From Raillietiella orientalis (taxonomy: Eukaryota): a stretch of DNA of 64,000 nt. A program made the translations under genes and the position numbers. The stretch spans positions 558,001 to 622,000 of the forward strand of contig JAYWIR010000050.1 in NCBI GenBank assembly GCA_036172245.1, read 5' to 3'. Of this stretch, positions 1-49,390 are shown in pieces. How positions within the stretch are numbered: position 1 is the first letter of the stretch; every line of letters starts with the position of its first letter. Below the pieces are notes generated by a model. The model did not search any database. It had not been told where the DNA came from and was given only the letters and a program-made list of their open reading frames with translations.

Positions 1-334
1 ATCTGCTTGGAGGTTAAAGCAATGCGGTTGACTGAAAGCGTAAGTTGCGATGCACAAATTCCATCGCCTCGGTGCTGCTCCGAGTTCTTGAACCTTCGAA
101 GAGCTGGAGTGCTTCCCGCACCTGTCGACTCTTCTACGGGTTTCCATTGCTTCCCGTAGACGCGTGGTAAACCTGTTGGCAATCGGAACGACGCTCTGGA
201 GGAGCGACTTGCCACCGGACACACAGGATAACCTCCTGATGTTTTATCATGGAGGAATCCTGTGCGGGACGGTAGCTTCGTGCACGGTATCACGTGACGC
301 GGAATCTGCACAGAGATGGATGCGAATGCCAGAT

Positions 335-460
335 AAAATAAATCTGTGCTGCTGGAACGTTAACCGTCTGTCGTGCTCTGAAGACTCCAAGTGCGGGGAG
401 GTAATTTGCATCACCCGGGTGGTAACCCTTGGACGCTTGCTGCCGCGTTCCGGATGAGCC
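335..460 (+). mobile_element. Possible remnant of a non-LTR retrotransposon APE endonuclease N-terminus
   Basis: Peptide INLCCWNVNRL resembles the APE start motif (I/L)xxWNVNGL; nothing recognisable follows. Confidence 0.25.
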
Positions 461-1524
461 CCCTTTGGTCGAGGTCCTCTTGACCTTAAAGTTTCACGTC
501 ATACTTGATGAGCTCGCACTAGAAGCCGAAAGGCACCTTCCTTGTGGCAGGCAGCACAGTGCTGGAAGCAGTGAGGTGGGAGCTTCTGGAAGCAGTAGCG
601 AGGAAGCATCCATTTGAGCTGTACTAGGGCTCACCTCTGGAAATAGCGGATTCCTCTAGCGTTGCTTTAGTTTGCTCCCTCGACTTCATTTCAATTGCAT
701 GATTTTTTCCTTCTCTAAAGTCATTACTTCTGCGCTGTTGCTTGCATAGGCATCCAATAGTTCGCGTTGTCTTTTCGCTGCAACAGGAACCGCCCTGGTG
801 ACGAGAATTCCTCCTTTCGAAAGAAGCAGATTCCGCCACGATGCATGGAGGAGGCACGACGCAAGCTCCAAACTTGACTTCTTTACTGGCTTACCTTTCA
901 GACCATCAGCGTAGTCCTCATGCAAAGGATCCACTGGCGAATGGCAACACCGATTTTCGTTCCACGTGAACCACCACACCAGCCCAGGAATCCACCAAGC
1001 ATCCTGCCACATTCTCCACCGCCCCGCAGACGTGGAGCTCTGCTGGATGCATTGCCAGCCACAGCTGCAGTTCCATGTGTTTAAGCAGTGACTCCGACAT
1101 CGGCAGCTCTACACATAGCTTGCTGAGTCTTTGGTGCCCTCACTACGTCACCTGGAATTCATGCTCCATCAGCTAAATTGATTCCATATTGCTAATTCGA
1201 TGATGAGTGCGCAGGGAATCAGCACACAAGCACGAAGCACATTACATGGAAAGTCGCATCTCTTGAGAAGGATCCTGTTGCTTTCTATTTGAACAAATGG
1301 AAACATTTTACCCTTCTTTTTACTTCTCACGAATCCTTTCCTTCGTGCATGGCAGTTTCCATTATCGCTGTCTTCTGCCAAGTTTTCTGAAGCAATGCCG
1401 ACTTCAGCATCTCCATTTTTCCTTACTGCTCACACTCCATCTTCATGATTAAAAGATGAAAAGTCACTCCCTCCATAGTTCCTTTTTTTTTTTTTTTCCG
1501 ATCAAATAAAACGTCGGATCACAG

Positions 1525-2721
1525 CGCCTTCGTGGGACCAAGCTCCCATCGGATGCCAATGCTCGCAGAGTGTTTACCGTGGGGACAGAAAGCCGCAGGA
1601 AGTGCGCGAGCCTCCGAGCCATTGCCGACGTAGAGGAAACAAGGGCATTGGGGGAGGATACGCTCGCATCAGTTTTCCGTAACCTAGGTAACGAAGTTGT
1701 ACTACAAACCAGGCAGAGCTTTCGTTCTTTTCCTATTTTTTTTCTGACTCTGAGATTTGTGCACATCGCATAAGATCGCTGCAACATGCCACTCCCGACC
1801 GACGGCAAAAGACAACCACCACGCCAGCCTTCACAGCCCCCACACAGGTCTAAGATCCCGGTCCCCGTCCCAGCCCCAATCGCGGAAAAAGAAGAGGCTG
1901 AGGAATCCCTTCCAGGAGCTGAAGCCTCCAGAGCACCTCGGATTCCAGTCCGCACACCCCCCCGGGATGCATCCGCGGTACCACTCCGCACTCCCCTCCA
2001 AGGCGCAGCTCCCAAGTCAACCGCGCCCACAAAGGTGGCGGGTGCCAGACCAAAGGATCCCCCTGCCCACGTTCGCTCAGCACAGTTAGTGTCGAGTAGC
2101 AAGGCCGCAACCGCTACCACCTTCAGTGCCCAAGGGGAGAAAGCTGTGGGTCGGCAGCCTCGCGCGAAACGCGACTACCCACCGCCCACAGCTCCGCTGC
2201 AGCTCAAGCGCGCACCCGCTGCTTCAGCAGCGGCCTCTTCCAGGAGCCCCCCACGCAAACGGAAGCAGGAAGTGCATCCCTCATATCCGTCGAAAACAGA
2301 GAGGCCCCCACGGAGCGACCAAACCCCGAGGTCAGCGCAAGAGGTCGAAGGCATGAAGAAACAAAGTGTGGACCTCGAGGTGCAAATGGATTTCTTGGGA
2401 ATCTTCCTACCCATGCTCTTTGGATCGGAATCTCCCGAGCTGTACTCAACGACGGAGTTCCAGAACTTCATAGCCAGGGCGACTCCCGATCAACCTGTGA
2501 GCACAGTTCCAGGAGTCGAGGACCGCTTGACCGAGATACTGCTCGAAAACGGAGTGATCTCAGTGGGCGATCTGTTGCAGTTGCTGAATTCTTCCATGTC
2601 CCTTGCATCCATTTTCTATTCCCGCTTGCAAGATATGGCGAAGGAAATCGATATTGACTTGCCTACGATTAGAACCATCTTTGCCTCGCTCATGCTCTGG
2701 AAATGTCGCCATTTGCAGTAG
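1525..2721 (+). CDS. Divergent BAF (barrier-to-autointegration factor)-like protein with a long Pro/Ala/Lys/Arg-rich N-terminal extension; 5'-incomplete model join(<1525..1687,1775..2721)
   Basis: The last ~91 aa (2446-2718, STTEFQNFIA...PVSTVPGV...L...L.ENG...F...LQD...RTIFASLMLWKCRHL) align by eye with human BAF without gaps over residues 3-65, keeping F10, A12, P19, V20, G25, L30, L34, G38, L46, F59, L63, D65, R75, F78, L81, W84 and L89. A phase-1 intron 1688-1774 (G|GTAACG, pyrimidine tract, CTGAC, TAAG|AT) joins an upstream open exon in frame. In-frame ATG at 1786. Confidence 0.65.
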
Positions 2722-2929
2722 TGCTGAGCCTGGAAAGCAGGAAAGTTGCAAGGAGAGAGAGTTTCAAGGCACTTGGGAAGGAATAAAAACGGTGGCGCAG
2801 CAAACACATTGGGACGAAGTCACTCGGGCAGAAGTGTGCACGCGTTTAGCCAGCGGGCGAGGTCGGATGAGGTCGGACATCTGAGATGAGTAAGTAAGCG
2901 GTAATCGGCGAAACCCAGTGGAATGGGTG

Positions 2930-3740
2930 ATTTCTGCGAGATGAATGGAAGCAAAGTGGCAACTTGGCCGGGTGAAGTCGGTCTGTCCACGGGATCCGGG
3001 GAGCAGCCAACTTGGATCCGGTTCCAGGATGGCTTCTGGAGGCACGGCACGGCCTTCTTGTTTGCTTCACTGGGTCGTCCTGCCCTTCGGCTGGAGTGTC
3101 TGCCACGTGCAGGTCGCGAAGCCGTCGGACGACCGCACATACGTGAGAGCTGTGGGTTTCGCAGTGGGCACCAAAGTGTCCTCGGGCAGTTTGTGTCCAC
3201 TCTTTGTTCGTTCCTAGCAGTGCTGAAAAACAGCTCTGTCGGCTGCAGAGATCCTTTGAGTAAAACGCACTTTTCTCGAGCAACCGCTCGATTCCAGACA
3301 TGTGGTGGTGTTGCTGAATTGATTACGAGGCAAAGCAATTACGCCGCAGCGATAGAACTTCTCATCCTGCATGGACCCCATGGATGTTTGCTGCGGCTCG
3401 CTTACCGCCTTTGGTTGGATTGGAACCGAATCGTAAGAAACGCACCATGAAAGGTGCCATCGCCCACTTCCTGCCATTGCCTTTGCGCCTTGAGTGGTTT
3501 GCTGTGCTCTGCCCGGAAACGGCCTCCTGGCGCTGGGAGGCTTCAGGTTTTGTCTAAGATTTGCCTTGATGCTCTCGATCTTTCATCTCGGATAGAGCAA
3601 GGACGGCAGAAGCCAAAGGTCCCTGTCCTTAATCCCTTCCACATTTTCATTTAATTTTTTTTATATATTCTTTTGTGGTTCCCTCCCTCCCGTTCCGGAC
3701 ATTTGGTTTTAGCGACCTGCGTGTCGGTGATCCTTCCCTC
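2930..3740 (+). mobile_element. Highly decayed LINE (L1/Tx1-like) ORF2 C-terminus and 3' UTR
   Basis: EQPTWIRF resembles GRPDWIRL of other copies; CLCALSGL resembles ALCCIRGI; a T-rich tract (~3645-3680) and the family 3' hairpin (CGAC-CTGCGT-GTCG, 3713-3726) follow. Confidence 0.45.
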
Positions 3741-4559
3741 CGTATTTCTGTACCCTTTGACTGGGAACATTTGTTCCGGAATCGTTTAGCAAGAAACTGC
3801 CCGGCGCACCCGGGTGGGAAACCTTGAGCAGCATCCGACTCGCGACGCGATCTCCACGGTAAAGTGTGGGACCCTGCAAAGTCCCGGGTCCGATCGAAAG
3901 ACTTGGTGGCGCCGCGCCAGGATGGGCATCCTGACCATGGGAAACGTCGGACTGCAGGTGCAGTTCTGTGTGCTGGCGCTGCGTGCCAAACTCTAGCGTA
4001 CACTAGGAAGTACACACGGACTCAAGGCAATTCAAGAACATGTCATGACGTGTTTGGGTGAAGTCAGGCTGCTCGTGTTGCGACTTTCTCTGAAGGACCC
4101 AAGAAGAATCACCTCTTCAGCGAGAACAGCCATCCTGTTGAACCATCGAGTTGTTGAATGAGCCCTCTTTAATCGAAAGCCTCATCTCTGAGTAAACGTC
4201 TGCTCACGCCTTCAGTTGGCTATTGATTTTCGGTCCCTCAACTGTATCGCACCGTCCGATGACCATCATCACAATCGCATAAGCAAACCCCTGATTTCTC
4301 AACAAAAAATAAAGGTGTGGCTCTCAACATTCCATCGCGTCCTGGTTCCTCATGTCATTCTGGAGGATCCAGCTGGAAAGCTGCTACTAGCGAAAGCCGA
4401 GCTCAGCGCTATTTGCTCGAATCAACGATTCAAAGGACAGCAACTGAGTTCGTTTTCTTCAGCTGGAGGGATGGACACGTCACGGCCGCGTGCACGCTGA
4501 AAGCACGTTGTGCACATGAATCAGCGAGTGGTGACTCTTCCAGCGGGCTGATGCAACGC

Positions 4560-5010
4560 TCAAGCAGGAAGTGGAAATAAGGGCGAGTGATGTTTGTTTT
4601 CGATTTATTTCTCGCCTACGGGGCTTCAGGTTATGACTGCTCTCGCTGCTGCTCTTCAGGAATTGTCCTGAGGACGAGTTACTTTTTGGAGATAGCAAAA
4701 GCATGCCGATCCCTGCTCAAACGTGCAGGACGCTTGGAACGCGCCCATCAGCATCTCTTTCAGCGGGCAGGCGGTGCACGGCCTGCCGGTGCGACGCGGG
4801 GCACAGTGGGGCTACAGTCTGAACCTTCTGTCCTTCAGCACCCATTTCGAGTTGGTGCTGAGAGCATGCAGGGAAGCTCTGGCTCCCCAGCCGCACGAAT
4901 GCCGTCTCAGCATGTGCGAACGATCTTCTGCTGCTGCTCCCCATGTCCACCCCGGTACTGAGCACTGGAAGACTTCTTCGAGCTGCTCACCCGCCGGTCA
5001 GGGCTGACTG
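4560..5010 (+). mobile_element. Decayed LINE reverse transcriptase fragment
   Basis: VFDLFLAYG (LDFxKAFD-like); GLPVRRGAQWGYSLNLLSFSTHFELVLRACREAL matches GVPVRGGIKQGDSLSPLLFSTYFGLVLRAYRETL of the 30684-31376 copy; VSACANDLLLLLPMS is a degenerate YADD motif; EDFFELL follows; frameshifted. Confidence 0.8.
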
Positions 5011-5279
5011 TGCTGAGCAGACTTTGCGCTCGGAACGTCGTGGACGAATTTTTGGGGGGCACTCAAACTTCCTGCGGCCCTTCGCTTCGCAGCCGCTGCA
5101 AACATTTTATATGCCTCCTCAGATGCCCTGCATTAATGCAGTTGCTGTTTTTCTCATAATCTTACTTTGCAGGAAAATCAGAAAGCACCGTAAAGTCCCC
5201 CGGTTTCCATACGGTAGGGAAGCCATTCCCCTTCCCGTACGGTCACGCATGCTGCAGCCAAGCCATTAAATAGGCCCTC

Positions 5280-5720
5280 ATATCCGGGAAAGAGGTTTGG
5301 CCCGCCCCAGTACGTGTGCAGCGTTGCGTATCCTTTAAGACTGCTGAGGACTTCACACTCGTCCATTCGCAGCCTCAAACCTCGTAGGTGAACCACTGCT
5401 GACTGGTCCGCCCTTCCGGGGTAGAGCCCCCTTTTCCTCGGTGGTTGTGGTGGTGTTGAGCAGTCGCTGAGCAAAGAGCTGCCTGCTCTTAGCCGGTCAG
5501 CTCAACGACTTCACCCCTGCTCACGATACAGAATGCTCCAAGGTCTCCATTCTCGATGTTCCCGTTGTGCAACCCCTTCCCGAAGGAACTTGCAACGGAC
5601 GCTGAACCTAATCGGGCCTAATACCTCGCAGGGCAGGGCAGGTAATCGTGGGCTACATTGTCCTCGGTTCCTGCTTGGGCAACGCGCCTGGCAGCCGAGA
5701 CAACTTGGCTCCACGTTCTT
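5280..5720 (-). mobile_element. Possible decayed LINE ORF1 (gag-like) remnant
   Basis: VHLRGLRLRMDECEVLSSLKGYATL resembles the RRM-like segment of L1/Tx1 ORF1 proteins; RTWSQVV lies upstream; interrupted by stops. Confidence 0.25.
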
Positions 5721-6269
5721 GTATTCCCACCATTGATGGAAACGAAAGCCCCGTTGCCCATCCGGGCTGCTGGCGAAGTCCCCGACTCACCTTCCGTAGA
5801 GGTGACGTTTGTCGTTTCCACCATTACGCGGGCACGTCCGCAAGCACGACGGCAGCCTTGTAGTCAGGTGGTACTCCGGGACGGAGGACCTGCCTTTGAA
5901 TCCGGGAAGGCCTCCGGGGAAAAGAGTTCGTCCCTCTCGCTGCTGGGAGGGGACCGCAGCGTCCAAGAATTCCCCGGTTCAACTTCTTTCCGTGCTTGGA
6001 TCGCTTTTTTCTCAACGGGGAATTCGGCCAACCCTTGCGGGATGCCACCATGCAATTCTCCATCATCTCTCTCCGTTTCCTTAGCAATGATGACGGACAC
6101 ATGCATGAAGTGAATAGGGAAGCTGAAATCCATCTTCCAGTCTCCCTGCATGCTGCTGCATTTCGCGCTATCCTTGTTGCTTTTCATTTGCTTGTTTTTT
6201 CGAGCGGCATTTTGATTCCCTTCGATTTTCTAAAATCCTATGTTCATGTATTCACCCCATGGGCATCAT

Positions 6270-6920
6270 TGTGTATTTCAACTTATCTATATAAATGTAT
6301 ACACGCACATATGTGTATGTATGTGCGCATGTGGAATTCATATACACAACACCCATATACATATAAATACGTATGTATTCATAGTAATATAGAAAATCTA
6401 CATACGAATACATAAATATATATACATCCATGAGTATGAATACACATATATATTTGCATACATATCAATTATTGTATTAGTATGTGTATATGAAATTGTT
6501 TATGTGGAAAAAGAGAAGTCTATGTATAGAATCACCAGAACATATTTGAGGAAAAACAAGCATACATGTGAATTTCTGTATAGAAAAACATGCATGTACA
6601 TAAATTTTCGTGTTCGCATCTCTGTATTCACATTTCCCTATGCATTTTTTATCCCATATTTCTACACATACTTATATTCATGCATATCTGTTCATATACG
6701 TACCTATATTGATATGGGAATACTTATGTTTTTTACATATATCAATATATGCAGAAAGTTTGTATGCTCATTTTTTTATATTCTGTAATATACACATCAA
6801 AAATTTTCATCAACAGCTTGTTGATATACATTAATCCTGTTCTACTGAGTTTGGATATTGCTCTATGCACAGTGTGCACACATATACATATTTTTTTCGT
6901 AATATTTATAACATACATGA
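6270..6920. repeat. AT-rich degenerate (TA/CA)n low-complexity tract
   Basis: Continuous atatac/acatat/atgtat-type motifs with a sharp drop in GC. Confidence 0.85.
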
Positions 6921-6959
6921 ATCATGGGCATGCCATACGAAGAATGCGTGGACGCGCCA

Positions 6960-8940
6960 AGCCTTTTGACTCCTCCCGATGGACCCTCAACTTGACGTTC
7001 TCATTTGTTCTCACCTGGAAGGATCTCTGCTCGAGACGGCTCAGTGGTCCAAACTTCCTTCATGGCAGAGTCTGCGCATCCGACGTGGCCCGTCGCCCCA
7101 GGCGCAGAGACGCGCCGAACGAACAGCCGCGCTCTGTTTTTGCGTGCAAGAAGTTCAAGGGAGGCGCTGGACCCACGTCCGCGCTTCAGGCTGGCACCTG
7201 GTCCTCATTCTGGACGCTCACCGGCTACATAGGGATCGAATTGGGTGCCTTCACCGCATAGCGGGTTCACGGCGAGGCTGATGAGGAGCCCATCGGATCT
7301 TTGAGGGTCTTTGCGGGTTGGTGACGGTAAAAGGCTTCAGAGTTTCCGTTTGGCCCTCTGGCAGCCAGTGGGACGCATTGCGTGGCTACCCATTCACCTT
7401 TCGAGACATTCACGTGGAAGGGCGTGGTGGAGCATTAGATACCCACGCGATACTCTGGAAGTAGCTACGCTTTTAATTCATGCTACTTTCCACGGCCTTT
7501 ACCCTTTACGTCCTTCCTGAATGCTCTGAAATGCTTGAAATCCATGTCTCTTCAAGAGAGGCTGAGCTCCGGGGCATTGGAATTGAGTTGCCGTGCGACC
7601 CAACGCCCACCAAGGCGCGCGGCAAAAAGTGACCATCCACCGCACGAGAAAGTACTTGACTTCGTCGGGAATTCTTGCCACAGGGACTTCCTTCCCAGTG
7701 GAGCACCACAGCGGAGGGTCGGATTGCGGGAGGAAGGCGCGGGAGTGCGTTTTCTTGCCGCGCTACTCTACGAGGTGTTTATATGGATGGTGGCTTTGCT
7801 GCCCGATGTGAAGAAGCAGATCTTTTCCTCTGTAACCTTCATGGCGAGAGGCTCCTAGAAAGTCTTCCATTACGCGACGTAGCTGAATTCACTGAGATGA
7901 CACTGAGATGTTCTTCCCATTCTCTCTTTTGCAGATAGAAACGATGGCGCAAAGATCGAAATCGTTGTTTTCTGTTGATCCTAGCTCAATCCAGGTAGAG
8001 GTGGCACATCTTCTTCGGCGTACTCGGTCCCTGAGAACCCTTTGAAATGAGGAACGACGAAAACGAGAACACCCTGGCGAGCTGTTCCCTTCCAAAATTC
8101 CATCGGGCCACGGGGGTTTCTGACACACGATTAAGGAGTAGCGGCAAAGAGCTTGCTTTCCCACCTCGCCGCAGCATTGTCCTTCCTCTTCGAACATATG
8201 GACAGCAGCCTTCCGGCAGGACGGGGGATGCCCGTAAAAATCTCCACATTGACAAAAGGACTAACGACGGGCCAGCTTACGAACACTGCGACTCTGAGAG
8301 CCCAGCTCCGAGCACACTGGGGCAAGCTGCTGGATATTCCGGAGGAAGACCTGCAATGGCCACCAGTGCAGTTGATCAGCAGCGCTCTCCTCTTGAAGAG
8401 ACAGGAGTTGGCGATGCTGCTGCTTCACTGGGACCTGCCATGTAGCGCCTGTCCGCATCACTGGACAAGGATGTGTGTGACCCTGAACTGTGTCAGGTGC
8501 GGGGAGTGCAAATCCTTCTTCTCCATCCACACCCCTTTCTAGGAACCCCGGTGGCAACTCCAGGGACCCAGGAAGACGCTTCCTCCTGCGTGACGCCCTT
8601 CGGCCGGCAGTCTCGTTGGCAGCTCTCTGCCCCCTGCGCGGGATCGTGGCAACTCGGAGCCAGGCAAGAGAAGGGCCGGATGACAGGGATGTCACATCCA
8701 CTTTGCCCTATAATTCATGAAGATGGCAACAAGATGACCCCGCCTGGAAAACAACATCCAGTAAGGTGTTGCCGGCATCCTCCAAACGATGCAGAGGATT
8801 TCCAACGCAGACGGCGATCCCTTCCCCCACCCTCCCCGAGATTTGTTTATTTACCTCTGTTTTTGTTTCTTTTGTTGTTTTGTTTGCTCCTGCCCCCCTA
8901 CTCAGCCGTGGAGGATTTCATCGGTCCTTTAGAAATGTTC
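6960..8940 (+). mobile_element. Decayed, internally deleted LINE (APE remnants through CCHC finger and 3' UTR)
   Basis: APE-like DVLICSHLE...GWHLVLIL and ETFTWKG. C-terminal WGKLLDIPEEDLQWPPV...KRQELAMLLLHWDLPCSA...CVRCGE is homologous to WVELLGILTDDLMWFPV...KWQESALLLLH at 29110-29225. LAALCPLRGIVA and a T-rich tail at ~8840-8890 follow. Confidence 0.75.
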
Positions 8941-13369: not shown

Positions 13370-14500
13370 CTTAAGCCTGAGCCACCTGCTCTTCAGCTGT
13401 GAGTTGGTGCTGAGAGCATACAGGGAGACTCTGGCAACCCTGCCGAGCTCGTGTCCCTGCACGCCTGCTGTGTCAGCCTATGCCGACAACGTTCTGCCCC
13501 TGCACCCTGGGTCCACCCCGGCATCGGCGCTCGAAAACTTCTTTGAGCTGCTGCGCCACGGGACAGGTCTGGAGGTGAGCAGAGAGAAATCTCGGATTGC
13601 TTTTACAAATACGAGGTAGGCTGGACGGCCGGACTGCATCCTCTTGGGGATCCCCACGGGCAGGTGCATCGAGTACCTTGGCGTTCCGTTAGGGGACTTC
13701 TGCGCAGCAGAAGCCTGTTCCGACCGTCTACAAAACGTGGAATTGGCTATCGGCCCGACCCAGAAGGGCAAGTTTTTGCTTACAAGAACGGGCCGCGGTA
13801 TGAAACGCTTCTGCGGCTCCACTCCTTCGCTTCGCACTTTCTGTTTGCCCTCCCCACCCATGATGAAATAAAGGATCGAGGACCTCCTAAGGAAAGCCCT
13901 TTGGGACACAGGGAGGTCCCGTGTCCGCTTAAAAGACTTGTGCGATGCACGCATGGACGGTGGATTGGGCCTCCTGCTGCTGGAGCGCATGGAGCGGCAG
14001 CTCCAATTCAGAGGACTCGCCCTTGCGCCGAAGTCTTGGGCGACTCCTTGGTGCGAACCCGCACACCCCCACGCCAGCAGCGGAACCGGCTGCGAATGAC
14101 TGTCCTCGATCCTTGTGGCATAACAGCGCAACCTGAACAACTGTGGCCGTGACCTGCGCCAGATGGTCTCCCTGATGAGGGAGAATACCTCGATCTCCTG
14201 CCTCCCCGCGAACTGCACTGCCTGGCTTCAGGAGTCAGTTTCCGCGTGCGCCAAGATCAACGGCTCGAGCGAGGCGGAGCACAACTGTCTCCGTCGAGGA
14301 CTCAACGCTCGACAGCCCCTGCAGGAGATAATCAACAACCGGCGGAAGTTTCTGTGGGCCTCTTTGACCCCCCTTGCCCCCGTGCTGTCCTCCCTCAAGA
14401 ACATTAGGAACAGCAACGAGCGAGCATTGTGGGAAGTGTCCTACCTCATCCGAGGAAGGGGAAATCCGCTGAAGGGGTGGACGACTCGGGAAGTATTGCA
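13370..14500 (+). mobile_element. Decayed 5'-truncated LINE RT and post-RT fragment (L1/Tx1-like)
   Basis: LVLRAYRETLATLPSSCPCTPAVSAYADNVL, ENFFELLR, GIPTGRCIEYLGVPLGDF, PANCTAWLQESV; colinear with the 28109 and 31250 copies; stops and frameshifts. Confidence 0.9.
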
Positions 14501-17858: not shown

Positions 17859-19610
17859 ATGACGGCATTCAAGGCGTGGATGCGCCCTCACTGGCTCCTG
17901 CTGCCAGCCCTGGCGGCGGCTGGCGCAGGATGTCTCCTCCTGCGGGAGAGGATCAGAAAGAAGCAACACACTGCAGGGAAGGTAAGTCCGTTTTCCTTCT
18001 TCCGCTGCTCCAGTCGTTTGGTTCGCGACCGCTTTCCGCGCACCTGTTCGAAATGAACGTGAGGAGTGTGGGGGAGGTTTTGGGGATGGAGGGGTAGCGC
18101 CCGGTGCCGCTACTGCTCTCGCTGTAGCCGCGGGCGTCACTAACGCCCGTGACGCCACCCTCGGCGTCATATCGCCTCGAACCGGAGGCGACGAGGGAAA
18201 GGAGGGGGCCTTTCCCATTTCCTCACTGCTCAGTGGCCCCCCGGGAGACCCCTCGCGACATGCGTCGCGCCTTACTTGCTTTCGTAGCTTTGTTTCCCGA
18301 GGCGCTCCGAACGCCGTCGGTGTTGCATGGTGCGTGCGCGCGCGCGCGTTGTCTCCACGCGGAAGACGCCTCTCCGCCGTCACCTGATGAAGACGCCAGG
18401 AGCCGAGAGAGGTACAGCGGGTGACACCCGTTGCCCGACATTCGACCATACCAGAAGGGACAACGAGGGAGGGAGCCCCAGGATTTGGAGGCGCGGCCGC
18501 TTTCCAGCGGCAGCTGCGAAAGGGCGACGCCTGCCGTGCCGAAACGCGCTCGTCCGGGAGTGCATTTTGCAGGGTTGAGCCGGCCCGGCGCCTCCTTCTT
18601 CCCTCATCTCCCTCCCGCATAGCTGTTTGTTGCAGAAGACGGATGCTCACCCGGAGGCCGGGCGGACTGATGAAGAGACGTCCCGCGCCGATGGTAGCGC
18701 CCTTCCCTACGTCGGGGGGCAGCCCGGAAAAGTCTCCGCACTAGTGGAGGACAACTTGCGCCTGCGGCAACAGTACCGAGAGGCGCTTCGGCAGGCCCAC
18801 CACTACCAGGTACGTCCCGTCCGCTCCGCTTGCCGCCGGGCCTCGGGGCTACCGAGGATGGGGCAGGCAGGCCCGGATGTCCGGCTCGCGTCCTCCTGCT
18901 TTCCGACACCCACCTTTTTCCAGGGGCTCTACCGGCTAAGCGAGCAAGCGAGAAGGGAGCAGAAAGAAGAGCTGGCGACCGCCACGCACATGTTGATCCT
19001 CGCTGCCGAGTTCCTGGAGGACAGCGACCCGACGCAGTCGCCAGGCAGCGCAGTGCGGGAGCAAATGGAGCCGGAAGTAGAAGACTTGGTGACTGAGAAC
19101 CCGGGAGAAGAAGACCTGGCGACTGAGAACCCGGGAGGAGAAGATCTGGTGACTGAGAACCCGGAAGAAGAAGACCTGGTGACTGAAATCCATGAGGGCG
19201 AGCAGGATGCGGACGGGGACGAAAGGTTGGCGGCTTTCGCTCCCGTCTGCCTTCCCTCGCCTTGCTGCGCTGTTTCCTGCGTGCCTGCCTGGTCCCGTCG
19301 TCCGAAAGAGGACGCCGACCCCGAACCCCCAAAATCGGACGGATCTCGAGAGCAGGAGCGCTTTTACGCCCATACTACTAGTAAGGTGGTGATGATCCGT
19401 GCGGTGGAGGGCTCCCCAGGAAAGCAGGAGGCGGTCTTCATGATTAAAAAGGACGCCACCAGGACGGTTGGTGGAGTCACCACCAGCTGCGCTTTGGGAA
19501 GCAAACGGATGACTGCAGAGATACCAAAAAGCCGTGACCCGTTGTGCTACGCCTACAGGATTGCTCCAGCGTGCTTCCAGCTACTCCACGACATGTTCCG
19601 CAGGCCATGA
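17859..19610 (+). CDS. Orphan protein with N-terminal signal/anchor, coiled-coil-like segment and acidic 10-aa repeats; join(17859..17981,18636..18809,18924..19610), 3' end uncertain
   Basis: MTAFKAWMRPHWLLLPALAAAGAGCLLLRERIRKK ends at AAG|GTAAGT. Acceptors TTGCAG|AAG (18636) and TTTTTCCAG|GGG (18924) and donor CAG|GTACGT are all phase 0 and in frame. The end is either read-through to 19610 or a further intron 19226-19308 ending at TAG 19381. Confidence 0.6.
19071..19190 (+). repeat. Coding minisatellite, 4 x 30 bp
   Basis: Units of ccgg(a/g)ag(t/a/g)agaaga(c/t)(t/c)tgg(t/c)gactga(g/a)a(a/t)c start at 19071, 19101, 19131 and 19161 and encode PxxEDLxTEN. Confidence 0.95.
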
Positions 19611-23973: not shown

Positions 23974-26900
23974 AATCGACTGTACAGACGATGTGTATGT
24001 GGCTCATCCTTAGGACAGCTTCATGTGCAGACAGGCCTGTTCTCCGAGAGAGCTGCTTCCAAATCCAGGTGCTGGGTTTGCAAAGACGAAAAAGTGGTTC
24101 GACGACGGTGACCTTGTGGTGGCCATAAAGGAGAGCTGCTTCTAGAATTCAGGTGCCTCATGCATCGCCACCGCCATCGGCACACGCTGTGCCAGCGGTT
24201 GACCGGGGGGCATCTCGTGAAATCGCAATTCATTTGTCCAAGGGGTTCCGTTGAACGCCTTGACCAAAGCCGGTCGTCTTTCTGGATGTTGACCTGAAAC
24301 GCGATGGGGAAACTTTCGTTTGGAAATTCTTGCGATCTATGAGCACGACCCGACCTTGCTTTCCGGAACTTCAAATGACCCGGCTCGCGGACTCGCGACG
24401 GGTTTCCTGCCTTGAAAACGAACCTGGGACGGACGCCAGTCGACAGTCTCAGAAGACACGCGACGGCCGTGAGGATTAACGTGCTGCAGCTCTGCGAGTC
24501 CATTAATGGCCAAGAAATTCGAAAACTCATCCACAGTGCGACGCTTTTCGAGATTTTCTCGTAGGATTCGCATTTCGAGCATTGCGAGACGCTTCACGCG
24601 GGTACCCAACGGCAGCATCCATCTCGTTTCTCATCTCATCTCGAATCTCTTGCAGCTAGCCAACGTCAGGCGACAAATGCGCTTCCAGTCGAGTAACGCG
24701 ATCATTCCCTATCTCTTCCGCGACATCCCATCAACCTATAGACCTATCCCATCAACGGAAAGCGCGACGGACCACGGACTCGGGAAAAAATTCACATTTT
24801 TCAATCTATTAATTTTCGCGACTCCAGAAGGGGAGAAGGGGAAGGCAGCAGCCATCCTTCTGTATGCACAAAGCGTGAGACTAATTATACGCTATCCGCA
24901 AAATTTCTCGGCAGAAAAGTGCGAGGTCCGTGGGAATTGGAGGTCACTCGGCCTACGCAGAAATCTGTGAAATCATAAAATTCGTCTCGATTTTTCATGT
25001 TCATCTTTATTTTCCGCTTCTTTCGTGTCAATTCCATCTGTACACGGAACATGCCATCGGCAAATCATAGAGAAGCAGAGCAACCTCTAAAACGGCTCTA
25101 CTCCGCCTCCGCCTCTTCCATCTCCAGTGGAACTTTGCAAGAGTTGAGGAACATCGAAATGTGGCATTGCCCGCAAGCAGGGAAGCTGCTGACGCTTCCA
25201 AGTGCTCCGTTATGAAACAGCGGTTGCCTTTTTTCAGGATTTCACTCACGAGTAATTACAACTGCACACGCTGCACGTGCAAAAATTACTTAACGACAGG
25301 AAATGCTCTTTTCTCAAACATCTGAGCTTTCAGATTCACCACTTCTCAGTGATGCAGTCTCTCGAGAAGAGCCTTCACCGCATACAGCTGCAAGAAATGG
25401 TCGAAGACGTATGTTGCTTTGTGAACACCGTGACCTTCGCTCGTTGCTGCACTGAAAGTAGCGGGAACGTGGGTCATGACCGTTCTTCCGGAAAGAGGCT
25501 GCAGGCTTCGGATGTTGCCGGAGATTGGTGTCCTTGCGCTGGTCACCAAGCCGCGAAACTTTTCCATCTAGAAAGCAAAAAAAAAGGGGGAAGAGCACAC
25601 CATTGCATCACTTCGGAGCTGCAAGCGTTACGAATCTCTTTTCACACGAATTCGCGTGTCCTTCGCAATTGCAGAAGTGCACGGCTGCAGTCGTACGTGC
25701 GTTGCTTCCGTACGAATTCGTTCGCCATTCGAAAGGCGGCTCCTTGCACGTTGGTACGCTTTTGCATTCGATCGACGTGCGCGTGTACGGATCCGAACAC
25801 GACGGCAACGCGAACCGTTTCGCCCGGTCACCACAACCAATGGTGAGATGAGATGGGAGAAAAGAAAGAAAGAGCGGAAGCAAAGACGAAAACTGCGGAT
25901 GGCTTTCGATGCTCGCAGGCGGCTAAGGAACGTTCCGCGCCCCTTCTTTGCCATTCCGTCTCGACTTTGACGGCGACTCCTTCCTGCGACGGGTCGCTGC
26001 AGGCGCCGCGCGACAACTCCGCCCGTGCGCAACCAACGATGACGTCATCGTCCATGGCGCACGATCCGTTGCGAACAAACCCCGCGTTTAGCGCGCCACT
26101 TGAAATCCGTTCCCTCCTTTGCATCCCCGAATCATGGAAGCCAAGCCGCACGAAACGTGGTCGCGATCCATCCATCCTCCATCGCTGCTTCCCATGCTGC
26201 CTTCCAGGAGACTCAGCGATGCGCGAAAAAAAACACCTTCCAAGGAACGCAGGACTTTGATGGCGTTCGGCGGTCAGAACGCATCCCCAGTGGATGACAA
26301 ACAGGATGACCACTCACGCATTCGCAAAAGTTCCCATCGCAGCTGCCATCCACGTCTCCTCCAGGCGAGTGGACACTCGGAAAATGCACGCGCGCGCGCT
26401 TGCGAAATTCGCAGTGTTTCGCGGAGGCGCGACTTTCCGTGAGCCACCGCCTGCCTCCGGTCGCAGAGCAGCGGGCAAAGTCAAAACGCATCGGGAAGAC
26501 ACGTCACGGAAGGACCTTTGGGACTTGTCCTCCTCATCTTGGATTCAAAGGTCAACCGCCGACCAACCACTCACAACGTCCACACTCGCAGGAAACGGCA
26601 AGTTTCGGTAGAAAAGGTGCCATCGCTCCTCGAAGAATCCGCCAAGGAAGCGCAGTTGGTGCGCTTCCGCGCGGCGCCTGCAAAACCGGTGCCGACAAGA
26701 GTTCCACCATTTGACTTTCCTTTTAGCGTGGCGCTTGCGCACGTTGGTGCGTCCTTTGAGCGACGGAAACGACCGCAGCAATCGCTTCTTCGTCGGCGCT
26801 CCCGCGACAGCGTAGCAGCAGAGAGGAACGACAGAACGCAAAGCACGGAGTTGTGAGTGTCCGAAGAGTCGTCGTTCCGCTCGTCCGAAGCGCGCCCAAT

Positions 26901-28104
26901 CTCTTCGCGCCAACGTGAACGTCGCTGCTGCTGCTGCTGCTGCATGCAACCGTTGCGAACGCTGACTGCGACCGCCAAACCGCTCGCGGGCGTACCTGCT
27001 CCTCGGAGATGCGCTGGAAATTTTCAAACAGCGTCCACGTGACCACTTCTTGGCATTCTGGAGTGGTCAGGGATCCGTTGTAGCGATGAAACATCGTCGA
27101 CTCGTCAGGGAACGAGACGAACTCATCCAGGCTGAAAGTTTGTTTCCCCTCCAGCTGCTTGGAGCTGCCTTCCACCGTCACGCTGGAGAGGTGGGACAGG
27201 AACTCCAGGAAACCGCGCAGCTTGCTACTCGCTTCCTCCACCTACGACGAGTGGGCGAAGCATGAGAAGCGCGCACTCCAGCTTTGCACACCTTTCCCGC
27301 TTCCGGCGGAAAGGCCCTCGCGCCTCCGCTCGGCGACAGGCCGACCACCCCGGCCTGCCGCCTGTCGACCCACCCCGCGCGCGCAGCCCTCCACACCGAA
27401 GGACGACGAACGCGCGAGACGTCCGTCCACTCGCAAACACGGCCACCAGACCACCAGCACGCGCAAGCGCGTGCTTCGCTCCGACGGATGCAGCGTGCGT
27501 GTTGGCTCCCCTCGCCACCGCCGCTCCTCTGGTGCTCGTATGTGGTCGCGTCGCGCTCGACGTCACGGCCTGTGGTGATGTAGCTTGTTTCAGAGGGCTC
27601 GGCAAACGCTGGCCGGTGCGAACGGTGCACTTTTCTCCAGCGCGTGGAGGAACGCAAGGCAGGGGATCCCCTCTTCCCTCCCTCCCCGCCCCACCCACCC
27701 ACACACACACACACACACACGCACGCACCTAGCTGGTGCGCACCACGTGGATGCCCGATGGAGAACGCTGCACCAAGCATCGTCATCCTAAAAATGGATC
27801 GTGCAGGCTGCAAACCAGAGACCCAGATGGTGTTTTCCGACAGAGAGACCGTTTCTGCTGTTTTCCCAGACGGCCTCGCGTAAATTGATTTTCGTCGGGC
27901 ATCCACACTTGGTCTTCGGCAAACCGCGTGAGCGCCCTCTCGCGCCAGCACGTCGTAATCTTCTACGAGCGAGGGCGTCAGCTTCGCGCGGAAAGCGGTC
28001 AAGTTTCGAAGCGGTGCTTCCGAAAGTCCTTTGCGGACGACGAGGAACGCGGGCCCGAAAGACTCCTTTCGCTCTGCTCCTTCGACCGTTCTTCGTCGAG
28101 GGAC
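23974..28104 (-). repeat. Inverted segmental duplication of 59338-63443 (left copy)
   Basis: Reverse-complement match end to end with mirrored ORF translations. By eye I found about ten substitutions, a 23-bp indel (26386-26408) and one CA-unit difference. Confidence 0.98.
25346..27241 (-). pseudogene. Partial alpha-carbonic anhydrase copy: exon 6 (27241-26996) and exon 7 (25567-25346) only
   Basis: Translations are identical to 60199-60444 and 61850-62071 (YNGSLTTPECQEVVTW; GNIRSLQPLSGRTV). The intron is retained, and the exons with the Zn ligands and start codon are absent. Confidence 0.9.
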
Positions 28105-28108
28105 AGAG

Positions 28109-29855
28109 CAGCATACGTCGACGATCTTCTGCTCCTGCTGCCCATGTCTTCTCCGGCAGCGGCAGTCGAGGATTTCTTCGATCTGCTACGCTGCGCGACG
28201 GAACTGCGGGTGAACAAAGCAAAGTTGTCGGTGATGGCTGTTGGTGCGACTTGGGTTGGACAGCCTGACTGTATCCGCTTGGGGATCCCCACGGCCAAGT
28301 ATCTGAAGTACCTGGTCGTTCCGTTGGGGGACTTCTTCCCCTCAGAAGCCTGGTCAGGTCGTTTCCAGAGGGTAGAGTTGGCGATAAGCCCGTTCCTGGA
28401 AGGCAGGTTTCTCCTGCCGGAACAGGCCTCGGTATGGAACGCGTTCGCGGTCCCCACCCTCCGCCCCCTGCTTTTTGTTTGCCCTGCCCCCAAACACTTG
28501 AAGAAGCGAACTAGGGACCTCCTCCGTATCGCCCTCTGTGGCAACGGGAGACCCCAGCTGGAGGGCTTGGAAATCCAGCTGCGATGGCGCACCATGGCCA
28601 TAGCAGCGAAGTTGTGGAGCACCCCTTGGTTCGTTCCGGCCCGCCTTCTTGCCAGCCGTGTCTCCAGGACGCAAGGACTCGCCTCTGATCTTCTGTGCCC
28701 CGGCCGGAAAATCAGAAGATGCGGCCTTCTCCTTGGACGCATGGTCGCATGGCCAACGTGAACGGCTGGATGGTATGCTGCCCCGCCAACTCTACCGCAT
28801 GGCTGGAGGAATCTGTTGGCACGTGGGCGAAGTTAAATGCTCAGAAAAGTCACAACTGGAACTGCCTGCGATTCGGCCCCTACGACCGCTGCACCCTGCT
28901 TACCATTCTGGAGTGTTCCACCAAGAGCCTGTGGGCGGAGACCACCCCTTTAGCCATGGCGCTGCCCTTGTTACGGAGGGCTCTCTTCAACAGCCGGACA
29001 CCAAAGTGGCAAGTCTCCTGTCGGATCGCTGGCAGAGAGAAGATGATCGGTTGGACCATGGTAGACCTGGCGGATGCCACGACCTCGAGTGTCCTTCCGC
29101 GTGGAATTCTGCGATGGGTCGAGCTGCTCGGCATCTTGACGGATGACCTGATGTGGTTCCCGGTATTGACAGGATCCAGGATTCTTCCTCTGAAGTGGCA
29201 AGAGTCGGCGCTTCTGTTGTTGCATTAGGGTGGACCCTGCAACGAGCACCGCTTCCACTGGACGTGGGAAAGAGTTAATCCTGAGTGTGCCAGGTGTGGG
29301 GAGCGGGAGTCCCTTCCCCACCTTATAGTTGACTGCCCTGACCTCCGGATTCTGTGGGAACGTCTCGGAACCACCCTTGGGATACCGGTTGGCGGCAACC
29401 CCAGAGATGTTTACAGTCTTCTCTTCGTGCGGGACACCCTGTGGCCAGCCGCAACCCTGGCAGCACTTTGCTGCATCCGTGGTATTGTGGCGGCATGGAG
29501 TGAAGCCGAAGATGAAGATTCCATCGTAACGGACGTTATCCCGTATGCTGTTCGCTTCCTGCAGAGAGCTACCGGATGGCCCAGGCTGGGTGGATTAAAG
29601 GAGGACTTCGAGGGCATCCTGCAGAGGATGGGCCCTCCTCCCAGTGGGCAGTGATCCCTTCCCCTCCCTCCAAAAACATTTTTTTTCTATTATTGTTTTA
29701 TTTTTATCTTTTTGTTTTTTTCTCCCCTCCCCTTCCACTGACGAGGAGAGTCACGCTGGTCTGCGTACCGGTGTCCCGTCAGGTCCGGCGAGATGTTGGC
29801 TGTTAGTGGGGCCTTGTACCACGTATTGTATTGACCATGGAAGAGTTTGAATAAA
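28109..29855 (+). mobile_element. L1/Tx1-like LINE 3' half (RT catalytic motif to 3' UTR), pseudogenised
   Basis: AYVDDLLLLLP, YLKYL, CARCGERESLPHLIVDC (C-x2-C-x7-H-x4-C); ORF2 stop at 29654; T-rich tract, hairpin at 29753-29774 and AATAAA near 29850. Frameshift near 28740 and premature TAG at 29226. Confidence 0.92.
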
Positions 29856-29859
29856 CGTC

Positions 29860-31250
29860 CCGGCGTTTCCGGGTGGCATCGCCCCCGCATCCAGTGGTGG
29901 TGGCGCGCGTTGCAGGAGACCACACCCCAGTGCAACAGCATAAGCGCCGACTCCTGCCACTTTAGGGGGAGGATCCTTCTTCCGGTTATCACTGGAGGCC
30001 ACTTCAGGTCATCCGTCGAGATGCCCAGCAGCTCTCCCCATCTCTTTAGTTTACGCGGGAGGGTCGTGGCGTCGGCCAGTTTTCCCATGGTCCAACCGCT
30101 TAACTTCTTCATTCTACATGCAATCTCGCAGGTGATCTGCACCTCGGCGTCTAGTTAGTGCCAAGTGCGCTCCTCAGGAAAGGCATCGTCGCAGAGGGGG
30201 GCCATCTCCACCCACGTGCCCCTGGCTGGACACTCCAGGACTTTCCGCAGCGAGCAGCGGGAAAGGTTGCTCATTAGCAGGCAGTTCCTTGCATGACTTG
30301 GCAGGTTTAACCTCGCCCACGTGCCAACTTTTTCTTCTAGCTATGCTCTAGAGTTGGTGGGGCTACACGTCATCCAGCTGTTCCCCTTCGCCATGCGTCC
30401 GAGAAGGAGGCCGCATCTTCTTTTCTTCTTGCCGCGGCACCGAAGATGAGACGCGAGTCCATCCGTTCCGGAGACACAGCGGGCGAGGAGGCGGGCCGGC
30501 ACGCACCAAGGAGTGCTCCAAAAATCCGCTGCGATGGCCAGAGTTCGCCATCGCAGCTGAAATTCCATCCGCTCAGGAGGACAAGACCGCCATCCCGACG
30601 CGGAGCGCACAAGTCCATCAAGGGGACTCGGGGCCTCCCCTTGCATCAAAGGGCGATGCGCAGGAGGTCCTTCGTCCTCTTCTTTATATCCACGGGAGGG
30701 GGCAAACCAAAAGTAGGGGGTACAGGATAGGGGCCGCAAACGCGTTCCATACCGCGGCCCGTTCCGGCAGGAGAAACTTGACTTCCAGGAACGGGCCGAT
30801 CGCCAACTGCACTTTCTGAAGACGACCTGACCAGGCTTCTGAAGGACAGAAGTCCCCCAACGGAACGCCTAGGTACTTCAGATACCTGACCGTGGGGATC
30901 CCCAAGCGGATCCAATCAGGTCGTCCTTCCCACGTCGCTCCAACTGCCGCCACCGACCACTTTGCCCTGTTGACCCGGAGTCCCGCCCCGCGTCCCAGCA
31001 GATCGAAAAAGCTTTCGACTGCGGACATGGGCAGCAGCAGCAAAAGATCGTCGGCATATGCCGACACGGCCGGCGTGCCGGGGCACCAGCTCGGCAGGGG
31101 GTCCAAAGTCTCCCTGTATGCTCTCAGCACCAACCCGAAGTAGGTGCTAAAGAGCAGAGGACTGAGGCTATCGCCCTGCTTTATGCCGCCGCGCACCGGC
31201 ACGCCGTACACATGTTGTCCCCTAAAAAGGATGTTCGTTATCGTGGCACC
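29860..31250 (-). mobile_element. L1/Tx1-like LINE RT fragment, tail-to-tail with the previous copy
   Basis: GIKQGDSLSPLLF, SAYADDLLLLLP, YLKYLG, WGELLGISTDDLKWPP...KWQESALMLLHW; frameshifted and lacks its 3' end. Confidence 0.93.
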
Positions 31251-31329
31251 ACCAGGTTTTTCACCCGGGTGAGCCGGGGCTTTTATTATTAAAATTTTTG
31301 CAACGAAACATTTCATAATAACGTCTTCT

Positions 31330-31880
31330 TTTGTTCTTGTGATTTTTTGTTTTTCAGTCAGACTGCCTTGGGGCACTTGTCCTTACCGACCTGCAGGCCG
31401 GTAAGGTCCTCTCCACTGGAGAAGGGGGCGGGAAAAACAGGAAAAAAAACGAAAAAAAGAAAACGCGTGGGGGTACAATGTTTTCGGGAGGGAAGGGATC
31501 ACGGTACGCAGTGTGGAGGCCTCTGCATCCGGTTTTGGATGCGAACAAGTGCAGGCAAATGTTTTCTAAGTCGGCGCCAAAGAGATGGCTGCCCAGTGGA
31601 TGGCATTCCGACTTCTTCGTCCTCTCCTGGTTGCGGTCCACTTGTCCAGGATTCCGCATATGCAAAACAGAGCACTGCTACACACCCGGAGGCTGGCATG
31701 GCGTCCCGCATCAGGAGGCGTCGAAAAATGTTTTCCGGGTTGCCTTCCGGAATGTTTTGGATCCCACATCTGGCGGAGGGCAACACATTCTGTAATCAAG
31801 TGGAGGAAGGTCTCTTGGGACCCTTTGGACGGGGGTCCCTTATCGCGTGGCCACACTTCGAATATCAGCCGGTAATGGCC
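31330..31880 (-). mobile_element. LINE 3' end fragment
   Basis: ETFLHLITECVALRQMW finger, ALFCICGILDKW, T-rich tract, hairpin at 31381-31406 and an A-rich tail on the minus strand. Confidence 0.7.
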
Positions 31881-33654: not shown

Positions 33655-34090
33655 AGTAAATAAATAAGAAAATAACGTGAACAGATAAATAAAATAAGGA
33701 AATGAAGAAAAATAAAGCAATTAATAGAATAAGCAAACAGCTGGATACATAGCTAAATAAACAGATAAAAGTCAATGAAATTAATACATAAATGAATAAA
33801 TAAAGAAATAAGGAGATACAAAATCAATGAAATAAATGTGTGAGTGAAATGATTGATTGATAGATAAATCAGCGGATAGATAAGCAAAGAATAGAAATAA
33901 ATAAATAACGAATGATTCAATGAATGAATAAATAAATGGACAAATGGATAAATAATGAATTAATGAATGAATAATAAATAATGGATAAATAATGAATGAA
34001 TGAATGAATAAACAAACAAATAAATGAACAAACGAATAAATAAATAAGTAAACGGAGAAATCAATAAACGAATGAATGAATACATAAAGA
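33655..34090. repeat. Degenerate (TAAA/TGAA)n simple repeat
   Basis: Runs of taaa, tgaa and caaa units. Confidence 0.9.
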
Positions 34091-34971
34091 GGACTTCCTT
34101 TGCTTGCTTGTCACAAGGAAAGTGGGGGTCTCGTCCGATCCGCCCAAGATGCCCTCTCGGGGCGCCTGCCTACCGCACCTCCCCGGCCCGGCAGCGCGCT
34201 CGTCGGCGCCGCCAGAGTTTCGTCCCATGGGCCGCGGCCCGCAGATGGCGCTGCACAGGAGGAGGAACGGGCCCAAAGATGCCCGGCAGGAGACAAAAGG
34301 CTCAGCCGTCCCGGTGAATCGGAGGGTGCCCGCGGTCCCCGGCAGCGGGAGCAGTGGGCCCCCCGCGACGGGAAGCGTGGCAACGGGAACGGTTCCCCGT
34401 CCCCCGAGATGCTCCCTGGGGACGGAGGTCGGCCGCCGCGCTCCTCCAGAGTCCAGTCGGGAGCAGGGCGCGCGGGATCTCGGGCTGCTGCCCCTTTCCA
34501 GCTTCGGAGCCAGGCGGCGAGGCCCGCGCCTCCCCCCCCTTCCCCTTCCAGGAGGAAGGAGGAACCCTCCCCCCATCCCTGAATCACCACCCTGGAAGAG
34601 GTGTTCGGGATTCAGGGATGGGGTGGTGTTCGGGTGCTTCCCATTTTCGAGCCGTGAATGAATGCGGCGCGTGCGCAAGCAGCGGGGTCGGGCGCGGAGC
34701 GCCGCCGGGAAGCCGCTGCATTTCGCCGGGGGCGGCGCGCGACCGAGTGGCGGCTTGGCGCGGGATAAAAGCGGGCGACGGAAGGAATTCGGGATGAACG
34801 GGGGAGACGCGAGCGCGTTCGAGCGGCCACGTCGGTGACGACAGCGCGTGTATCCATCTCCGTCGGGGCGCCGCCATCTTGTCGGAAAGCCGGCATTGTT
34901 GGCGGGTGGGCACCTTCTCGCGCATTGTTGCCGGACTCCATGTTGTTTACTTGCGCCGCCTGCGAGCTGAC

Positions 34972-49004: not shown

Positions 49005-49390
49005 TCGCCGCCGTCGCCCCTGTCGACAGCGACGGCGTCGGCATTGCCGTCGTCGGCAACAGCACCACGGACGTCACTACCATTACCAGCAGCAGCAGCA
49101 GCGGGAGGCATGCTGCATCACCGCCAACAAAAGCGAGCAGCATCCAATCAACGGCGACATCCCACATCAACACTACCACCATCGTCAGCGACAGCAACAA
49201 CATCATTAGCGTTGCCGCAGCCACCATCACCGTCACCACGATCTGGACATCACACCGGTCTCACCAGCCAGCAACAGCAACCACCGACGTCAACGTCGTG
49301 GTTGTCACGCCGAGGAGACCGCCCGCCGCCACCAACGTGACTGTCGCGATCCATGACTGCTGTCCCCGTCGTTGTGGCGGTCGCTGAGGT
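49005..49390. repeat. Degenerate trinucleotide (CAG/CAC/CGT/CAA) tract
   Basis: 3-periodic low-complexity sequence similar to 47255-47805. Confidence 0.6.

Follow-up and report, generated by a model that had tools for sequence, protein, structure and literature searches.

BAF (BANF1) is a DNA-bridging protein that forms an obligate homodimer and binds double-stranded DNA, LEM domains and lamin. Its hairpin, consisting of Gly25, Ile26 and Gly27 in human numbering, contacts the DNA backbone. The protein stands alone, with a length of 89-90 residues. It belongs to the most strongly conserved of the small animal chromatin proteins, with 64-72% identity between the ten BAFs aligned in this work. 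Here, an open reading frame (ORF) with a partial likeness to BAF is described. It lies at 1786-2721 on the plus strand of a 64,000-nucleotide stretch of the Raillietiella orientalis assembly (contig JAYWIR010000050.1, positions 558,001 to 622,000), and this whole stretch is referred to as the window. The ORF is very probably a real protein-coding gene and probably a lineage-restricted one. By Pfam HMMER and ESM Atlas, BAF is the nearest known family to its C-terminal domain, and BAF ancestry of that domain appears plausible, with the chances about evenly balanced. As for membership of the BAF family, the domain scores below the gathering threshold, covers the family profile in part, has lost most of the invariant residues and lacks the second glycine of the helix-hairpin-helix (HhH).

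The DNA binding of human BAF is sensitive to single substitutions. In PMC2173821, four single changes are described that abolish it, among them glutamate at position 6 and glutamate at position 27, and a protein with glutamate at position 47 is described as still folding and dimerising. Another relative, the vertebrate BAF-L (BANF2), is characterised in two sources (bioRxiv 10.1101/2024.05.16.594580 and PMC13443024) as having no or weak DNA binding, as heterodimerising with BAF and as being enriched in the testis; according to the latter of these, it is 53% similar to BANF1.

The stop-to-stop frame of the ORF extends over 1774-2721 (TAG stop at 2719-2721), and its first ATG, at 1786, would give a product of 311 residues. 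Its parts are as follows.

1786-2721, plus strand: candidate coding sequence of 311 codons and a TAG, from the ORF list and its translation; the frame opens at 1774
1786-2385, plus strand: basic tail rich in Pro, Ala, Arg and Ser, residues 1-200, from composition and a moderate three-base periodicity
2245-2265, plus strand: SPPRKRK, residues 154-160, read from the sequence; putative nuclear localisation signal
2386-2445, plus strand: hydrophobic and acidic linker, residues 201-220, which holds the internal ATGs 2386 and 2413
2446-2718, plus strand: C-terminal helical, acidic domain of 91 residues (221-311), from composition, low-confidence helices of the AlphaFold2 (AF2) models and the ESM Atlas
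2455-2556, plus strand: BAF-like segment, domain residues 4-37, equivalent to residues 7-40 of the 90-residue BAF forms (human 6-39)
2562-2563, plus strand: equivalent of the phase-0 intron point of BAF genes (between codons 42 and 43), where the BAF likeness stops
2782-2787, plus strand: AATAAA, candidate polyadenylation signal by its sequence, 61 nucleotides past the stop codon

The domain reaches the C-terminus of the protein and is preceded by 220 residues, whereas BAF has nothing ahead of it. When five cuts of the sequence were compared with Pfam by HMMER, SAM_BAF (PF02961; PDB entries 1CI4, 7ABM and 7Z21) was the top family in all of them, with E-values (E) of 0.019-0.078 and scores of 13.9-15.9 bits. 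The alignment joins domain residues 4-44 to positions 6-46 of the 88-position profile without a gap. The first-pass annotation, which had aligned the C-terminal 91 residues to BAF by eye and had proposed a profile search as a check, is borne out as to the family and the register; the score stays below the gathering cutoff of 25 bits and the match is confined to profile positions 6-46.

In the ESM Atlas, BAF clusters were the top three and 15 of the 30 matches to the domain, and the ten best named matches all came from one family or clan. The first match had a value of 0.93, with 177 shared features and a recognition of 2793; on calibration, such values are each a few-fold commoner for true relatives than for chance matches. 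BAF clusters again held the first three places when the full protein was used, at only 0.77. In the best cluster (79 residues, SAM_BAF in 23% of its members), half of the four members with a known phylum are viral. Viral BAF homologues are far-diverged relatives of BAF from outside animal cells; nothing viral or mobile was seen beside this ORF.

For a closer comparison, an alignment of ten full-length, 90-residue BAF reading frames, termed A1, was used. These were obtained from metagenome contigs scanned for a short BAF motif, a scan that returned 39 loci; two of the ten, when passed through Pfam, gave 154 bits each over the whole SAM_BAF profile. Columns K7, G26, G28, L47 and G48 of A1 correspond to human residues 6, 25, 27, 46 and 47, a fixed shift of -1. 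Against the domain, the A1 profile gave 7.9 bits, with an E of 2.4e-4 when counted as one test, and 8.0 bits were reached by 4 of 20000 shuffles. An hhalign comparison with A1 found the same register at a P-value of 0.0013. The ungapped register scored 25.8, with the runner-up among the 43 registers at -5.0, and the hydropathy correlation of the N-terminal half peaked at this register as well, with an r of 0.42, a value that 13 of 5000 permutations attained.

The BAF-like segment comprises helix 1, a loop and the helix-hairpin-helix. Helix 1 with the loop (domain residues 4-19) and the hairpin part (20-37) were each bettered by 1 of 20000 resamplings in one ungapped register, and the former scored even above the latter. 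The residues shared with BAF are Phe10, Val20, Gly25, Gly38 and Leu46 in human numbering, and the ungapped likeness extends over 34-41 residues.

One of the metagenome BAF loci (L015, 583-735, plus strand) was seen to have a second exon that is clearly more diverged than usual, with 58.7 bits over positions 41-87 of the SAM_BAF profile. It may belong to a BAF paralogue of some uncultured animal.

Several results weigh against a BAF origin of the domain, and together they make up the case for a different view: that the ORF is a real orphan gene or exon, the domain of which is unrelated to BAF, its 34-residue likeness being due to chance or to convergence on a generic HhH pattern, in which hydrophobic-x-Gly-hydrophobic precedes an amphipathic helix and a Gly turn. 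The SAM_BAF score lies under the gathering cutoff, as said above. Further, among 91 control ORFs (stop-to-stop, 55-119 residues, first 10 kb of the window), three matched unrelated families just as strongly (E 0.031-0.038, 14.2-14.6 bits), so the SAM_BAF match by itself is at noise level. When the whole window was scanned in six frames with the A1 profile, the ORF came second of 1246, at an E of 1.9 and below a chance match, and the hhalign probability was just 18.6%. Only 5 of the 27 columns that are invariant in A1 between columns 4 and 51 are retained (F11, V21, G26, G39 and L47), the other 22 being changed; as A1 holds ten closely related BAFs only, 'invariant' is a generous term here.

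The second half of the domain adds to this. From A1 column 41 onward, the segment scores are those of the null (10537 and 4215 of 20000), and the global alignment of the second half has a z of 0.67, with 353 of 1500 shuffles equally good. Its hydropathy showed no significant correlation with A1, and the C-terminal half alone matched no Pfam family. The claim that some 91 residues align with BAF with the hydrophobic core conserved can, therefore, be kept for about 34-41 residues, since the second half is no different from shuffled sequence and is not alignable.

Structure prediction yielded two single-sequence AF2 models with predicted local distance difference test (pLDDT) values of 62.4 and 65.9, too weak for a judgement on the fold. 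With these weak models, Foldseek found no match in the PDB at E of 0.001 or less; BAF chains appeared at E 4-7.6 with template modelling (TM) scores of 0.30-0.38, and 1ci4_B in particular at E 6.4 and TM 0.37. VIA-align superposed BAF chains on a weak model with a Z of 2.2-2.4, and a wide VIA search with a weak model gave a top Z of 5.6, which is inside the noise stated for that tool. The better of the two models (pLDDT 65.9) has five helices. The same number is given for BAF in a figure legend of PMC2173821, a weak agreement at the level of the prediction.

Generic HhH modules, such as HHH_5 (PF14520) and DUF4332 (PF14229), share with the ORF the hydrophobic-Pro-Gly-hydrophobic turn, the amphipathic helix and then a Gly. 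HHH_5 matched residues 18-45 of a 51-residue cut with 12.7 bits (E 0.19), short of its cutoff of 27 bits, and DUF4332/HHH_5 clusters come after BAF in the Atlas, at 0.85-0.88. Moreover, shuffled proteins reach a first Atlas match of at least 0.9 in 4-10 of 100 cases, and in a third their ten best matches come from one family. On the other hand, the generic families score lower than BAF, the second hairpin glycine is Glu in the ORF, and the preceding helix matches BAF specifically; it is this helix 1 with its loop that outscores the HhH in the same ungapped register. Two methods of different kinds pick BAF out of about 25,000 families, although they use the same 91 residues and are not fully independent. 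The 177 shared Atlas features are in the range of nine out of ten true members, as compared with one or two out of ten chance matches. An orphan domain unrelated to BAF is, on balance, rather unlikely. Should the likeness nonetheless be chance, this would be one more orphan ORF.

No relative of the ORF came out of the searches. From 5483 candidates, a word-based search with the whole 311-residue product retained none at E of 0.01 or less; with the 91-residue domain at E of 10 or less, it yielded a single candidate and no scored match. Likewise, phmmer with the C-terminal 113 residues found no relative among 1.84 billion representatives, its sole match (E 8.5e-4) being a repeat protein that was rejected as chance. 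As a control for coverage, the trypsin-like ORF of the same window was put through the word-based search and likewise found no relative. The collection thus lacks close kin of this organism, and the missing homologues are weak evidence rather than proof of a unique gene. By sequence, the PDB returned 8 and 11 matches (E 0.86-2.1), without a BAF among them. In metagenome contigs searched with the ORF, 391 pattern matches were obtained and none was confirmed. In viral contigs, the ORF had a single match of 17 residues, rejected as chance, and the A1 search confirmed 0 of 158 pattern matches. Two phage matches by tblastn (E 2-4) were likewise rejected, and PHROGs gave 0 families. Literature searches brought up no tailed or fused BAF-like protein and no paralogue class beyond BAF-L, which is not proof that there is none; PF02961 itself occurred in 0 papers.

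If the segment does descend from BAF, the residues at its DNA-contact positions gain importance. In the Pfam register, human positions 6, 27, 32, 33 and 47 are occupied by E, E, E, I and Q, exactly as had been read in the first-pass annotation, while Gly25 and Leu46 are retained. The hairpin Gly-hydrophobic-Gly becomes Gly-Val-Glu, its second glycine being replaced. With Glu in place of human Lys6 and Gly27, a BAF-derived domain could reasonably be expected to have lost BAF-type DNA binding through the hairpin. Not all the substitutions carry the same weight. The change at Lys32 has little meaning, as that column reads K, G, A, R or Q among real BAFs. The argument from position 47 is weaker than implied earlier, given that the 47E protein still folds and dimerises (PMC2173821). 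The description of the DNA-binding surface as acidified holds good at the contact positions; over the domain as a whole the shift is modest (isoelectric point (pI) 4.7, K+R 7, D+E 11), since canonical BAFs are themselves acidic, with a pI of 5.1-5.8 and K+R of 11-14.

The explanation favoured here, still only tentatively, is that of a real gene in which a BAF-derived, DNA-binding-dead hairpin module is combined with a basic tail. It would be a lineage-restricted gene, in a genome that is animal-like and rich in G+C. The encoded protein would have two parts, a disordered basic tail with S/T-P sites and an RKRK cluster of nuclear localisation type, and a compact domain at the C-terminus, acidic and helical. 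Helix 1 and the helix-hairpin-helix, which make up the first third of this domain, would have descended from BAF. The tail may bring the protein to the nucleus and provide unspecific, electrostatic binding to nucleic acids, whereas the hairpin, with Glu in place of Lys6 and Gly27, would no longer bind DNA in the manner of BAF. The hairpin could then serve as a module for self-association or for contact with some protein partner. If this is true, a second, independent, DNA-binding-dead relative of BAF would be a natural experiment on the re-use of the BAF dimer and hairpin, and a regulatory role in the biology of the nuclear envelope or of sperm chromatin could be considered for the protein.

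A more specific proposal, close to that of the earlier reading, is an independently evolved, non-vertebrate BAF paralogue in which DNA contact has shifted from the hairpin to the basic tail. Such a protein might act as an antagonist or regulator of BAF, or as a germline chromatin protein, and it may stem from exon 1 of BAF. It would be a parallel to the vertebrate BAF-L, differently built, and would naturally hold two of the four changes by which human BAF loses its DNA binding. The likeness to BAF-L is one of concept only, namely relatedness to BAF combined with a loss of DNA binding and, possibly, a modulating effect on BAF, and this comparison is drawn by description; BAF-L is small and stands alone, while the ORF is far more diverged and long-tailed. 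That the nearest family is BAF and that Glu stands at positions 6 and 27 speak for a BAF-like protein without DNA binding, as had been suggested. Against it are the results on family membership given above and the half of the domain without likeness. This proposal is considered unlikely.

The ORF is the longest in the first 13 kb of the window, and a length of at least 315 codons was reached in 3 of 400 simulated 13-kb sequences (first-order Markov model of those 13 kb). The three-base periodicity of the whole ORF is significant (p 1e-4). Of 213 sliding windows over the first 13 kb, 8 had a periodicity with p<0.005; the ORF accounts for three of the 8, including one from its tail. The G+C content at the three codon positions (GC1, GC2 and GC3) follows the order GC3 > GC1 > GC2 in either half of the domain, as in neighbouring real exons; the values are 0.48/0.38/0.64 for the domain and 0.55/0.37/0.75 for a carbonic anhydrase exon of the window.

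It could be argued that the ORF is not a gene at all, and is instead a frame that happens to be open in DNA rich in G+C and poor in T, with a weak motif match picked by eye. The window is GC-rich (G+C 0.45-0.70) and has 267 stop-to-stop ORFs of at least 120 residues and 71 of at least 200; long ORFs thus arise by chance and length alone is little proof. Other frames are open for 100-236 residues over the same GC-rich stretch, the periodicity of the tail is merely moderate, and neither a homologue nor a Pfam family above threshold was found. This is countered by the rarity of such a length in the local simulations, by the codon-position pattern in both halves of the domain, by the share of periodic windows that fall inside the ORF and by the AATAAA past its stop. 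A chance frame appears quite improbable. The longest of the overlapping frames, an antisense ORF of 236 residues at 1464-2174, was rejected as a true gene on account of its GC1/2/3 of 0.55/0.62/0.54, its weaker periodicity and its lack of a Pfam family.

The point at which the likeness ends is of interest in itself. Canonical BAF is equally conserved in its two halves, judged from the invariant columns of A1. A survey of 14 BAF loci showed a pyrimidine tract and AG directly before codon 43 in 10 of the 10 genomic, intron-bearing ones, the other four being intronless or complementary DNA (cDNA); BAF genes thus have a phase-0 intron between codons 42 and 43, which is a trait of many BAF genes and not one that defines the family. 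In the ORF, the frame runs unbroken across the equivalent junction, 2562/2563, and no intron is present there. The end of the likeness at this point suggests that only the first coding exon of BAF may be represented.

A chimeric young gene can be proposed on this basis. Only the first coding exon of BAF (residues 1-42) would have been captured, the other two thirds of the domain being unrelated, and the fold need not be that of BAF; a partial duplication reading on into the former intron would be one route. The likeness spans A1 columns 7-40 and is gone from column 41, the junction precedes GTGGGC at 2563-2568, and a one-sided loss is unexpected for a paralogue of the whole gene, given the equal conservation of the second half in canonical BAF. 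Nevertheless, a GT at a given position is a 1-in-16 coincidence, and the Pfam alignment extends to profile position 46. The domain length of 91 residues, near the 89-90 of BAF, fits a relative of the whole domain better, and the coding-like pattern of codon positions seen in the first half continues through the second. A chimera of this kind is decidedly unlikely; if it were true, it would be a clear example of a new gene arising through the capture of an exon.

The basic tail was verified in composition: residues 1-200 contain 36 P, 29 A, 20 R, 20 S and 15 K, with a pI of 10.8, and the SPPRKRK motif is found at residues 154-160. A part of more than 200 residues rich in Pro, Ala, Lys and Arg had been claimed, and this description is sound. 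Its comparison to histone H1 is overstated, as Lys makes up 7.5% of the 200 residues, which carry a net charge of +17 (K+R 35, D+E 18). The protein has six S/T-P sites, four within the tail and two further downstream, at residues 216 and 233. In SPPRKRK, the basic RKRK cluster adjoins an S-P site and looks like a nuclear localisation signal. The tail that bears it would be an obvious candidate for nuclear import and for unspecific contact with nucleic acids if the segment is BAF-derived. A Pfam scan of the tail gave no family.

Judged from its sequence, the tail is likely to be translated, with a periodicity of 0.097 chi-squared per codon (p 0.003; p 1e-3 for the window 1861-2100). This is weaker than the 0.207 of the domain, and GC3 in the tail does not exceed GC1 and GC2. 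It is here that a short, stand-alone BAF-like protein would find its support. In such a scheme, translation would begin at ATG 2386 or 2413, for a product of 111 or 102 residues, and the 200 upstream codons would be an open leader. The ATG at 2386 is flanked by A at -3 and G at +4, canonical BAF itself stands alone at about 90 residues, and long open stretches occur over the tail in neighbouring frames too. The frame is, however, open for 200 codons upstream, the tail periodicity is significant, and the first ATG, 1786, likewise has A at -3. A short product is, accordingly, very unlikely. A decaying retrocopy or pseudogene of BAF, to which the intronless BAF-like part and the strong divergence (5 of 27 invariant columns kept) might point, is scarcely credible: for all this divergence, the 311 codons are free of stops and frameshifts, their codon-position pattern is coding-like, and no poly(A) tract is seen on the 3' side of the ORF, where the sequence was read directly.

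Upstream of the ORF, the following features were read.

1483-1497, plus strand: T15 tract, followed by AAATAAAA at 1504-1511; possible promoter-region features, read from the sequence
1688-1774, plus strand: candidate intron of the first-pass annotation, GT to AG and frame-compatible, proposed from sequence alone

This candidate intron had been part of a gene model starting at 1525. The GT, the AG and the matching frames are there, and nothing beyond these supports the model; the upstream frame 1510-1687 is without an ATG and without three-base periodicity (p 0.47). The stretch 1688-1774 could equally be an intron of the 5' untranslated region, or nothing at all. Still further upstream, 961-1200 is periodic (p 3e-4) in a phase that fits the minus-strand ORF 921-1139, which has no Pfam match; an exon of a gene next to the BAF-like ORF, on its upstream side, may be present here.

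A mobile-element origin of the ORF was dropped. No terminal repeats or duplications were found beside it within 1-8000, and self-BLAST showed 1-13 kb to be unique within the window. It had been placed among remnants of long interspersed nuclear elements (LINEs), which is a loose statement: ORFs of at least 55 residues within 1-10 kb have no reverse-transcriptase or endonuclease domain, and the nearest LINE remnant, 13403-13944, is 10.7 kb away. A LINE reverse-transcriptase remnant (RVT_1, E 8.7e-8) is present at 30687-31382 on the minus strand, and its degraded look-alikes are seen at 13403-13944 and 28162-28555, with 72-81% identity.

The rest of the window has recognisable genes. An alpha-carbonic anhydrase gene extends over 53853-60447 on the plus strand, with exons near 53853-54443, 57427-57528 and 60199-60447, separated by introns of about 3 kb with canonical GT-AG ends and pyrimidine tracts. 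An inverted duplication of 4.1 kb (23974-28104 and 59338-63443, 99.15% identity) carries the same alpha-carbonic-anhydrase exon in each copy, at 26726-27241 (minus strand) and 60199-60714 (plus strand), both with 60.2 bits. A trypsin-like serine protease is found at 34798-36482 on the plus strand in two overlapping frames, which cover 25-44 and 51-169 of a 220-position profile; there is thus an intron or a frameshift between the pieces. The carbonic anhydrase exons, the trypsin-like gene, the LINE remnants and an observed/expected CpG ratio of 0.83-1.23 in the window together indicate an animal-like genome without CpG depletion. A scan of the window gave 0 Rfam families and, by ARAGORN, 0 transfer RNA genes.

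A 343-codon ORF at 18579-19607 on the plus strand is strongly periodic (p 2.7e-8) and has no Pfam family. It holds a tandem repeat at 19071-19186 (30 nucleotides in 3.9 copies), which encodes acidic units of 10 residues. The ORF probably represents a real exon, from an uncharacterised gene. The region 48001-52000 has 69% G+C, and ORFs of 200-500 residues are open there in most of the six frames; a weak match to a proline-rich family is seen at 47742-48392. Lastly, a microsatellite of (AAAT)n / AAATGAAT, about 190 nucleotides long, occupies 33895-34088.

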